Below are positions 9,483 through 12,400 of a stretch of DNA of 16,781 nt, in pieces; the stretch's first letter is position 1; the number at the start of each line of letters is the position of its first letter. Made by a program: the position numbers. The stretch is from a virus (lineage: Duplodnaviria; Heunggongvirae; Uroviricota; Caudoviricetes): IMG/VR virus record IMGVR_UViG_2859810971_000002; one strand, given 5' to 3'.

Positions 9483-12400
9483 GTTAGAGTCTTTCAGTCT
9501 GCGATGATGGGAAATCCCGGAGTGACTGAAAGACGTTTAAGTTATGAATGATCGCTTTTTTTTGCAAAATTGCTGTGCAGAAATACTAACCTTCGGGCAG
9601 GCGATCATTCATAAGCACTCTGCTTTTATTCCGATTAACTGTGAGTGGTTTGTTGGATAGAGTGCTTTCCTTACTGTATATATCGTTTCGCCCGCTTTTG
9701 CGGTTTTTTCTTTTCAAATCCCTTTCATTTCTCAGTGTAAAACTACGCCATCCGTTATTTGCGGAGGTGAGGCTATGAAATCCATGGACAAAATTTCAAC
9801 GGGCATTGCCTACGGCACCTCCGCAGGCAGTGCTGGCTACTGGTTTTTACAGTGGCTTGATCAGGTCAGTCCGTCACAGTGGGCTGCGATTGGTGTACTG
9901 GGGAGTCTGGTTCTGGGCTTCCTGACTTATCTGACAAATCTGTACTTCAAAATCAGAGAAGACAAGCGTAAGGCTGCGAGAGGTGAATAATGTCGCCATC
10001 ATTACGGTAAGCGCCCCATCAGCGACGTCTTGTGAAAATTGTCCTGTCTGGCAACAATCGCGCCCATCTATATTGATGGACACGAACGATGAATTCCCAG
10101 ACAACAAAAGATATTCCCTGCTTCCGTTCTTATTTGCCTGATGCCCTGCGTTTAAGATTTGAAGATAAACTGACCATCCGGGCCATCGCTCAGCGTCTGG
10201 GTCTCAGTCATTCCACAATACATACGCTTTTTCAGCGATTTCTTGCATCCGGTATCGCATGGCCATTGCCCGATTCAGTTTCATTCGCTCAACTTGACGC
10301 CATCCTTTATGCCAACAGAAAGAAGGAATTAACAGAGCCTCAAATCAGAGAAGGCTCATGGCGAAAAGAACGGCGAACCAGCTATAGCCGTGAATTTAAG
10401 GTCCGTCTGGCTAAGCAGGCGTTACAGCCTGGGGCTGTTGTTGCCCGGATCGCCAGAGAACACGATATCAATAATAACCTGCTGTTTAAATGGAAAAGCC
10501 AGTACGAGGACGGCTTACTGAGCGATGATGACATACAGGAATGCATGCCTGTCCCGGTGGCACTGACTGATACGCCGGAGCCGACCAGACCAGTTACAAA
10601 TCCCTTCTGGCGTAACAAGCATGATGAGCGCCCTGAGGGGGCTCCCGGAAACGTCCCACGGTGCGAGCTGCATCTTAAATCAGGTGTGGTAAAACTGTTT
10701 GACCCTCTCACTCCGGAACTGTTACGGGCGCTAATCCGCGAAATGAAAGGGGGTATCCGATGATAACGCTGCCGACCGGTACCAAAATCTGGATCATCGC
10801 TGGCATCACAGATATGCGTTGTGGCTTCAATGGCCTGGCTTCGAAGGTGCAGAACACGCTGAAAGATGACCCGTTCTCCGGGCATATCTTCGTCTTCCGG
10901 GGCCGCAGTGGCAAAATGGTGAAAATACTGTGGGCCGATCGTGACGGGTTATGCCTGTTCGCCAAACGTCTGGCCGGTGACCCGGGAAGGGAAAGTGCAC
11001 CTGACGCCAGCTCAGTTATCCATGCTACTGGAGGGGATCGCGTGGCAACATCCCAAACGGACAGAACGGCCTGGCATCCGGATATAACCCGTGATAAAAC
11101 AAGGGAATGAACAATGAACTCCCCGATGATATTGAGCTGCTTAAAGCCATGTTGCGTAAGCAACAGAGTCGGCTTCGACAGTATGCCTGTCAGGTCGCGG
11201 GCTATGAGCAGGAAATTGAACGGCTGAAAGCGCAACTCGACAGGTTGCGTCGTATGTTGTTCGGCCAGAGTTCAGAGAAAAAGCGTCATAAGCTTGAAAA
11301 TCAGATCCGACAGGCAGAAAAACGACTGTCGGAACTGGAAAACCGGCTGAACACAGCCAGAAATCTTCTGGAAGATGCATCGTCAGTCACAGATTCACCT
11401 GACACCAGTCCCCCGTCAGAAAACCCGATCGCCAGTAAGCCTGAATCCCCGGGACGAAAATCTTCACGAAAACCGCTGCCGGCAGAACTTCCCCGGGAGA
11501 CACATCGCCTTCTGCCTGCTGAAACCAGTTGCCCGGCCTGTGGAGGTGTTCTGAAAGAAATGGGGGAAACAATCTCAGAGCAACTGGATATCATTAATAC
11601 CGCCTTTAAAGTTATCGAAACCATACGTCCCAAACTGGCCTGTAGCCGGTGTGATGTCATCGTTCAGGCACCACTTCCTCCTAAACCGATCGAACGCGGT
11701 TATGCCAGTGCAGGGTTACTTGCACGGATCCTGGTCAGCAAATATATGGAACATATCCCTTTATATCGCCAGTCAGAAATATACGCGCGACAGGGCGTGG
11801 AGCTGAGCTGTAATACCATGGTGCGCTGGGTATCAGAAATGGCAGACAAACTCCGTCCTCTGTATATAGCGCTGAATGACTATGTTCTGGAGGCAGGAAA
11901 GGTGCACGCTGAGGTAGCCTGAGTTTAACGGACACTCCTTCCTGAAATAGAATGGCATCAGAAGGAGCTAATAATGAGCAGAAAAACCCAACGTTACTCT
12001 AAAGAGTTCAAAGCCGAAGCTGTCAGAACGGTTCTTGAAAATCAACTTTCGATCAGTGAAGGCGCTTCCCGATTATCCCTTCCTGAAGGCACTTTAGGAC
12101 AATGGGTTACCGCCGCCAGAAAAGGGCTCGGTACTCCTGGTTCCCGCACGCTGGCTGAACTGGAATCTGAAATTCTGCAACTGCGTAAGGCGTTAAATGA
12201 AGCTCGCCTTGAGCGAGATATATTAAAAAAAGCAACAGCGTATTTTGCACAGGAGTCGCTGAAAAATACGCGTTAATCGAACAATGGCGACAACAATTTC
12301 CCATTGAAGCGATGTGTCAGGTATTTGGTGTATCCAGGAGCGGTTATTACAACTGGGTACAGCATGAACCCTCAGACAGAAAACAAAGTGATGAGCGGCT

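Follow-up and report, generated by a model that had tools for sequence, protein, structure and literature searches.

The 16,781-nucleotide (nt) stretch of DNA analyzed here (IMG/VR virus record IMGVR_UViG_2859810971_000002, Caudoviricetes), referred to below at its full length as the window, very probably carries the broken lysis cassette of a decaying lambdoid prophage that lies at serU in a Shigella-type chromosome and is close to the Shiga toxin (Stx) phage phi467. The cassette has the order Q-pR'-tR'-tRNA genes-S-R. The holin gene S is an undamaged leftover, and the endolysin gene R, which follows it, ends after 17 nt at an insertion sequence (IS), ISSfl3, that is itself interrupted by a second element, IS600. 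No new kind of system is represented, as the S21-type pinholin, the R21/RrrD-type signal-anchor-release (SAR) endolysin, ISSfl3, IS600, and the ipaH-bearing prophage remnant are all known. The parts of the cassette, in the order in which they occur, are as follows.

8285 to 8974, plus strand: late antiterminator gene Q (PF06323 type), a pseudogene with an in-frame TAG at 8600-8602 (W106*), recognized from its two Pfam halves and the TGG of its relatives.
8963 to 8991, plus strand: putative sigma-70 promoter resembling pR', at the end of Q (TTGCAA-17-TATATT), from a consensus scan and from its position, which is that of the annotated pR' of phage 21.
9042 to 9067, plus strand: tR'-like intrinsic terminator (AAAACCCGC-CCACAA-GCGGGTTTT, then a T run), from the sequence, the RNA fold, and a terminator scan.
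9135 to 9163, plus strand: putative promoter just 5' of the tRNA cluster (TTGCAA-17-TATTAT) with a GC-rich discriminator, from a consensus scan.
9173 to 9482, plus strand: four phage-borne tRNA genes (CAT, Lys-TTT, Thr-TGT, and Gly-TCC), from ARAGORN, Rfam, and the RefSeq annotation of the related locus L003.
9483 to 9774, plus strand: structured leader between the tRNA genes and S, with three long hairpins, a short hairpin followed by a T run, and the Shine-Dalgarno sequence GGAGGTGA at 9763-9770, from the RNA fold and the sequence.
9775 to 9990, plus strand: intact, dual-start gene S of an S21-type class II holin (pinholin), with S71 starting at 9775 and S68 at 9784, from a PF04971 match and identity to phage 21.
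9990 to 10006, plus strand: remnant of the SAR endolysin gene R (rrrD/R21 type), first 17 nt only, from alignment with the intact cassette of phage phi467.

By all of the sequence criteria applied, the holin is a member of the S21 family. Its open reading frame (ORF) comprises 71 codons beginning MKSMDK, with ATG codons for Met1 at 9775 and Met4 at 9784 and a TAA stop at 9988-9990. The product matches Pfam PF04971 ("Bacteriophage P21 holin S") over profile positions 1 to 63 of 64 (E value of 1.4e-35; 121.5 bits against a cutoff of 26) and is identical to the S protein of phage 21 at 70 of 71 residues. The sole difference, R64K, lies in the cytoplasmic C-terminal tail, and residues 1 to 63, which include both transmembrane domains (TMDs; the SAR-like TMD1 and TMD2), are 100% identical. 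The dual-start motif Met1-Lys2-Ser3-Met4, at 9775-9786, matches the starts annotated in the phage 21 record for S21-71 (the antiholin) and S21-68 (the pinholin). The channels formed by S21-68 are small and heptameric and bring about the collapse of the proton motive force, on which SAR endolysins depend (PMC9636201). Given the 99% identity to phage 21 S, the gene in the window would be expected still to encode a competent, channel-forming pinholin. An earlier note on this DNA had described an intact, S21-like, dual-start holin with a strong ribosome-binding site, and the PF04971 match, the 70/71 identity, GGAGGTGA, and the MKSM motif all agree with that description. Its proposal that an orphan pinholin could depolarize the membrane if it were expressed is also sound, in view of the channel activity of S21-68 (PMC9636201) and the degree of identity.

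The SAR endolysin gene that would be the partner of S is represented directly 3' of it by just 17 nt, and in a near-identical intact prophage the full gene stands at the same place. The S stop and the R start overlap as TAATG at 9988-9992, with the R start at 9990. From there the remnant reads ATG TCG CCA TCA TTA CG and is followed at 10007-10013 by GTAAGCG, the first 7 nt of the IS; alignment with the intact phi467 cassette shows identity through nt 17 of the lysin gene and complete divergence beyond. The break falls between the second and third bases of codon 6; a G from the IS completes CGG, a TAA comes next, and the resulting reading frame is MSPSLR*. Neither the SAR segment (from about residue 8) nor any part of the lysozyme catalytic domain is present, and the fragment, which fails every defining feature of the SAR endolysin family, is a pseudogene stub. 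The intact R homologue at L003 encodes 165 amino acids (aa) and is 95% identical to R21. The earlier note had reported that the lysin gene overlapping the holin was cut to MSPSLR before the IS end GTAAGCG, and the phi467 alignment places it exactly so. The comparison with an intact S-R cassette for which that note had called finds the holin complete and the lysin broken after nt 17. The insertion had been put after codon 6; the IS does interrupt the lysin gene at that codon, with the breakpoint inside it rather than behind it.

The break is not confined to one assembly. A 30-nt probe across the S-R'/ISSfl3 junction matched six independent sequences: the complete chromosomes CP026810.1, CP178302.1, and CP182556.1 (Shigella flexneri SFBU1023), which come from different projects, and three IMG/VR contigs. 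The window is 100% identical to CP026810.1, a chromosome of 4.53 Mb. The junction was found in 0 of 5,426 complete E. coli genomes, which hold only its two halves, separately. The earlier note had raised misassembly, with an intact endolysin immediately downstream in read data, as the finding that would overturn its account. ISSfl3 and IS600 are multicopy elements of a kind that commonly break or misjoin assemblies (an ISSfl3 query had 38 matches in one chromosome), and a chimeric joint of S to a repeated IS would leave an intact R 3' of S in the real genome. Set against this are an identical junction in three contigs as well as three complete chromosomes of separate projects, lineage-specific differences among those sequences around the junction, and a breakpoint that coincides with the IS terminus to the base. 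The chance that the junction is an artifact is therefore negligible.

The element inserted in R comprises the following features.

10007 to 11909, plus strand: 5' 1.9 kb of ISSfl3 (IS66 family), with the left inverted repeat from 10007 and no right end, from identity to complete ISSfl3, NCBIfam, and RefSeq names.
10089 to 10763, plus strand: tnpA of ISSfl3, intact (NCBIfam IS66 TnpA, 283.9 bits).
10760 to 11110, plus strand: tnpB of ISSfl3, frameshifted by a 20-bp deletion after 10966 (NCBIfam IS66 TnpB, 85.1 bits, profile positions 1 to 63 of 90 only).
From 11107, plus strand: tnpC of ISSfl3, truncated, cut by IS600 at 11909/11910 (NCBIfam IS66 transposase, 163.4 bits against a cutoff of 180, profile positions 3 to 155 of 387).

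The IS66-family assignment made in the earlier note can be refined to ISSfl3. From 10007 on, the window is 98.5% identical over 1,903 nt to ISSfl3 as named in RefSeq, and it starts exactly at the ISSfl3 terminal sequence GTAAGCGCCCC. Like the matches of the holin and of the R remnant, this one lies far outside what chance would produce. A complete ISSfl3 in E. coli FDAARGOS_943 is 2,754 bp long, begins with GTAAGCGCCCCATCAGCG as in the window, and has the 8-bp duplication GGGAAGTC on both sides. Since that copy starts with the same GTAAGCGCCCCATCAGCG between GGGAAGTC repeats, position 10007 is the exact terminus of the IS. The left repeat and the gene order tnpA-tnpB-tnpC are those of the complete copy. 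Unlike it, the element in the window consists of the first 1,903 of 2,754 nt only, has a frameshifted tnpB and a tnpC cut by IS600, and is without a right repeat and target duplication, the right end having been removed by IS600 and deletion. The tnpC match falls below the profile cutoff because of the truncation. With the 20-bp deletion in tnpB and the interruption of tnpC, this copy of ISSfl3 is dead. The predicted right junction (the right inverted repeat, then TCATTACG, then the remainder of R), which would have shown the target duplication and an ancestor with the complete insertion directly, had no match in metagenome contigs or IMG/VR viral contigs.

To the right of ISSfl3 lie the second element and the point at which phage sequence resumes.

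11910 to 13170, plus strand: IS600 (IS3 family) within tnpC of ISSfl3 (99% identity to annotated IS600; right boundary accurate to about 2 nt).
11974 to 12276, plus strand: orfA of IS600.
12312 to 13130, plus strand: orfB of IS600.
13172 to 13650, plus strand: 3' fragment of a DUF4376 gene, the neighbor of a tail-fiber gene (Pfam DUF4376; the full-length gene precedes ipaHe in E. coli FDAARGOS_944).

The tnpC match ends at 11909, where IS600 begins with TGAGGTAGCC, and IS600 is followed by the 3' part of the DUF4376 gene, ipaHe (minus strand), a methyltransferase gene, and a tail-fiber-assembly fragment. The extent of the loss can be read from the prophage in E. coli FDAARGOS_944, which aligns with positions 5331-10006 of the window with 7 mismatches and no gaps in 4,676 bp, the alignment ending exactly at 10006. 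Past the insertion point this prophage goes on with rrrD (165 aa; 95% to R21), a spanin gene (Rz), and HNH, terminase, portal, protease, capsid, and tail genes, all of which are missing from the window. Because these downstream genes are absent 3' of IS600, the remainder of the endolysin gene has been removed from the locus and not merely displaced by the IS. The attribution of the lysin loss to an IS in the earlier note thus holds as far as the insertion itself goes; it overlooked the truncation by IS600, and the rest of the lysin is missing rather than 2.7 kb away. The DUF4376 fragment is the right-hand breakpoint of a deletion or rearrangement that took out the remainder of R together with Rz and the genes for head and tail. 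The gene found behind IS600 in S. flexneri SFBU1023 is the tail-terminator gene of this phage type, and the right end there is a nested endpoint, as expected for IS-adjacent deletions.

It is also conceivable that the right part of the window (DUF4376'-ipaHe) was brought in from another prophage by recombination at IS600, as FDAARGOS_944 has this module in a lambda-like prophage inserted at yehV. The prophage in the window's genome has serU as its left neighbor and zinT as its right one, and a deletion within a single prophage was judged the simpler explanation. The module itself (DUF4376-ipaHe-methyltransferase-tfa) lies next to btsS/btsR in FDAARGOS_944 (L008), and the same DUF4376-ipaHe module is next to zinT, at the serU locus, in the window's genome; since it occupies yehV in the one and serU in the other, prophages integrated at different sites carry it at their right ends.

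Differences among the sequences that share the junction bear on the order in which these lesions arose. The IMG/VR contig L019 has the 20-bp tnpB deletion, and its ISSfl3 runs past 11909 with no IS600; it represents an earlier state, in which ISSfl3 once extended past the IS600 site. In S. flexneri SFBU1023 the tnpB deletion is absent, and IS600 stands 12 nt to the 3' side of its position in the window. The insertion of ISSfl3 is the oldest, shared event, because it is common to copies that differ in the tnpB deletion and in IS600. The IS600 insertions in the window's lineage and in SFBU1023 are probably independent, and the downstream deletions end at different points in different lineages. 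We infer that ISSfl3 transposed into codon 6 of R, that this copy then decayed by the 20-bp deletion in tnpB, and that IS600 subsequently inserted into its tnpC. A deletion or recombination adjacent to IS600 would finally have taken the 3' half of ISSfl3, the remainder of R, Rz/Rz1, and the morphogenesis genes. IS-driven pseudogenization and rearrangement are described as typical of Shigella genomes (PMC8072062). IS600 occurs in tnpC of ISSfl3 at two positions 12 nt apart in two lineages (11909/11910 in the window; about 2808 of the reverse complement in L006), and as these lineages differ in the tnpB deletion, the proximity of the sites suggests independent insertions into a preferred target. 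IS600 also adjoins IS66-family genes in several E. coli records.

Upstream of S, the window retains the lambdoid late layout annotated in phage 21, with Q, pR', tR', the tRNA genes, and S in that order. A functional lambdoid late operon has an intact Q upstream of pR'-tR', and in the window this gene is disrupted. Positions 1 to 100 of the Pfam profile are matched by 8285-8599 and positions 102 to 214 by 8603-8971; the codon at the break, codon 106, is TAG in the window and TGG in five relatives (L003, L005, L019, L020, and L021). Intact Q in complete cassettes has 229 aa. Two sister copies have independent lesions of their own: L019 has lost 1 bp from an A run near 8932, and in L020 a stretch of 27 bp near 8797 is duplicated. 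In all copies of the lineage the C-terminal tail of Q differs from that of the 229-aa protein, and RefSeq flags one copy as frameshifted. The prophage has no early region from which Q would be transcribed; next after the integrase gene (3369-4409) come IS1, hok/sok, DUF968, rusA, and Q. The tR' hairpin is intact; its symmetry led the terminator scan to call it on the opposite strand. Between the tRNA genes and S, the 292-nt leader (9483-9774) is unusually stable (RNA fold z = -4.1); within it, at 9692-9714, a short hairpin (CCGC-TTTT-GCGG) precedes a T run. The leader is 98 to 100% identical to those of intact phage cassettes and 100% identical in FDAARGOS_944. Given the TAG in Q, an undamaged terminator next to pR', and the loss of the early region by which Q would be driven, we infer that S is most likely silent in this strain. 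In every copy examined, the four tRNA genes are undamaged; for the CAT tRNA, ARAGORN gives Met and the RefSeq annotation of L003 gives tRNA-Ile.

Several observations weigh against the view that S is a silent remnant. The ribosome-binding site and dual-start motif of S are undamaged. Q is a full-length ORF in the sister copies L005 and L021, where S could in principle be activated, and the promoter-like site by the tRNA genes lies 610 nt 5' of S, such that read-through from it to S is conceivable from the sequence. S is also unchanged in the six junction-bearing copies when Q, 3.2 times longer, has three independent disruptive lesions, a contrast that is suggestive and not statistically distinguishable from chance. 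These same points would favor co-option of the orphan pinholin as a membrane-depolarizing toxin (acting in suicide or abortive infection, growth arrest, or vesiculation), expressed through residual Q, Q supplied in trans, or read-through from the tRNA promoter. A toxin role had been suggested in the earlier note, and it could draw further on the 99% identity of S to a pinholin that collapses the proton motive force on triggering (PMC9636201). A precedent for a tolerated lysin-less holin is available in E. coli K-12, in which a DLP12 mutant that has the S21-family holin gene essD and lacks the endolysin and spanins was built, was viable, and showed about 2.4-fold more vesiculation (PMC7918800).

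The architecture of the locus argues the other way. Q carries a nonsense mutation here and is independently damaged in other copies, tR' is intact, and further structure lies 5' of S; no promoter-like site was found by consensus scan between the hairpin at 9692-9714 and the ATG of S. A consensus scan against Rfam revealed no antisense or antitoxin family near S, although it found sok at 6097-6272, and no antitoxin or immunity partner was found near S, in contrast to the hok/sok module 3.5 kb upstream. That module is a genuine small membrane toxin with antisense control in the same prophage remnant. It is a type I toxin-antitoxin module at 6097-6422 (plus strand), with the Rfam sok match and a Hok-family ORF ending at 6422.

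Nor does the intactness of S call for selection. At the DNA level, S does not differ between the six sequences that have the junction and FDAARGOS_944. Among seven sequences there are 31 variable events in 3,707 aligned bp (6300-10006), from which 1.8 events would be expected in the 216 bp of S, with a Poisson probability of about 0.16 to 0.17 of seeing none. Because local variation predicts only about 1.8 changes, and zero is expected about 17% of the time, selection is not needed to account for an unchanged S; a search for purifying selection on S in the seven sequences found too little variation for any signal. The exact S protein is, moreover, the commonest allele of intact phage cassettes, occurring in 17,232 index blocks in which it is normally followed by a lysozyme gene. 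Since the region is young and the protein is common in ordinary prophage cassettes, the intactness of S carries no domestication signal. S has thus most likely stayed intact because too little time has elapsed for a 216-bp gene to be hit, rather than through upkeep as a toxin. With W106* in Q, an intact tR', no early region, and variation that fits neutrality, the suggested toxin role is unsupported, and for this strain we regard it as very unlikely. A more specific form of the idea is that S is kept as a lysis-free effector: a compatible Q from a superinfecting or coresident lambdoid phage, or read-through from the tRNA promoter under stress, would bring about depolarization or vesiculation without lysis, making S an abortive-infection or envelope-stress device. 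This we consider highly improbable.

It may instead be that the selected event was the loss of the endolysin, with the holin as a bystander. Knockout of SRRz would then be pathoadaptive in Shigella through reduced shedding of peptidoglycan and reduced stimulation of innate immunity. The R::ISSfl3 allele is common to several Shigella-type genomes and has persisted through later events. Loss of DLP12 SRRz/Rz1 from Shigella has also been published; as summarized at second hand in PMC7918800, Leuzzi et al. (2017) found that Shigella lost these genes and that restoring them raises peptidoglycan release and attenuates virulence. The prophage considered here, however, is decaying throughout (Q, tnpB, ipaHe, and the early region), which neutral IS-driven erosion explains, and with Q dead and the late operon silent, R was probably not expressed in any case. 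Nor was any convergence seen, as the R lesion goes back to a single insertion event and not to several independent hits. Selection for loss of R is inseparable here from neutral erosion, and we hold a pathoadaptive origin to be unlikely.

The surviving part of the cassette can be compared with three known systems. It resembles the S21-R21-Rz/Rz1 cassette of phage 21 in its holin (70/71), the MKSM dual start, the TAATG overlap with the lysin start, the layout Q, pR', tR', tRNA genes, S, R, and an intact R homologue in the lineage that is 95% identical to R21. It differs from phage 21 in having 17 nt of R and no Rz/Rz1, a Q of a different family (PF06323; other loci, such as L016, carry PF06530), a different set of tRNA genes, and a structured leader of 292 nt against about 107 nt. 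The closest relatives are Stx phage phi467 and the FDAARGOS_944 prophage, both of which match the window at 98 to 100% DNA identity over the span that starts in the nin region, takes in S, and ends exactly where the IS inserted; they also have the tRNA-Thr/Gly-S-rrrD arrangement in common with it. Unlike the window, both keep the full S-rrrD-Rz cassette and the morphogenesis genes, and phi467 has stx upstream of its tRNA-Thr/Gly genes and S, whereas the window is without stx. DLP12 of E. coli K-12 (essD-ybcS[rrrD]-rzpD/rzoD) is likewise a defective lambdoid prophage that pairs a holin of the S21 family with an R21-type lysozyme. It is distinct from the prophage in the window, has an attachment site other than serU, and keeps its whole cassette, reported to be transcribed, whereas in the window an IS has disrupted the cassette and the gene for its activator is dead.

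The locus is a worked example of stepwise IS-driven erosion of a prophage in Shigella, in which Q and ipaHe decay in parallel, and it cautions that a short ORF that has simply not yet been hit should not be given a function. It matters little beyond annotation. If the holin were in fact expressed, the locus would offer a natural holin-without-lysin state in which to study pinholin toxicity and vesiculation in a pathogen, and it would tie in with the published idea of a pathoadaptive loss of prophage lysis cassettes in Shigella.

Outside the cassette, the window contains further features. ipaHe (13829-15471, minus strand), which encodes a type III secretion system effector with E3 ubiquitin ligase activity, has one G fewer than the 547-aa gene of FDAARGOS_944, the lesion being near 15447. 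Its frame shifts after about codon 8, leaving an N-terminally truncated ORF of 484 aa from a TTG, and because of this truncation the product would be without the region of the secretion signal. A full-length Rfam match to CssrB (chromosome-encoded Shigella small RNA B; 230 bits) lies at 15599-15778 (plus strand), in the interval that separates ipaHe from the methyltransferase gene. An IS1 copy (4552-5330; insA/insB ORFs at 4618-5315) stands between the prophage integrase and the nin-region genes. L005, L019, and L021 have 156 bp of other sequence at that site; this IS1 is therefore confined to the lineage of the window, where it may have removed neighboring DNA. A second decayed island, adjoining tRNA-Asn (1-1510 and 2185-2260), holds an IS3-family transposase gene represented by its 3' part (1-654) and a P4-type integrase of which a C-terminal fragment is left (761-1510, minus strand). 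At the other end of the window, an Rfam IS009 match (16535-16738, plus strand; 129 bits against a gathering score of 117) overlaps the tail-fiber-assembly ORF that starts at 16512.

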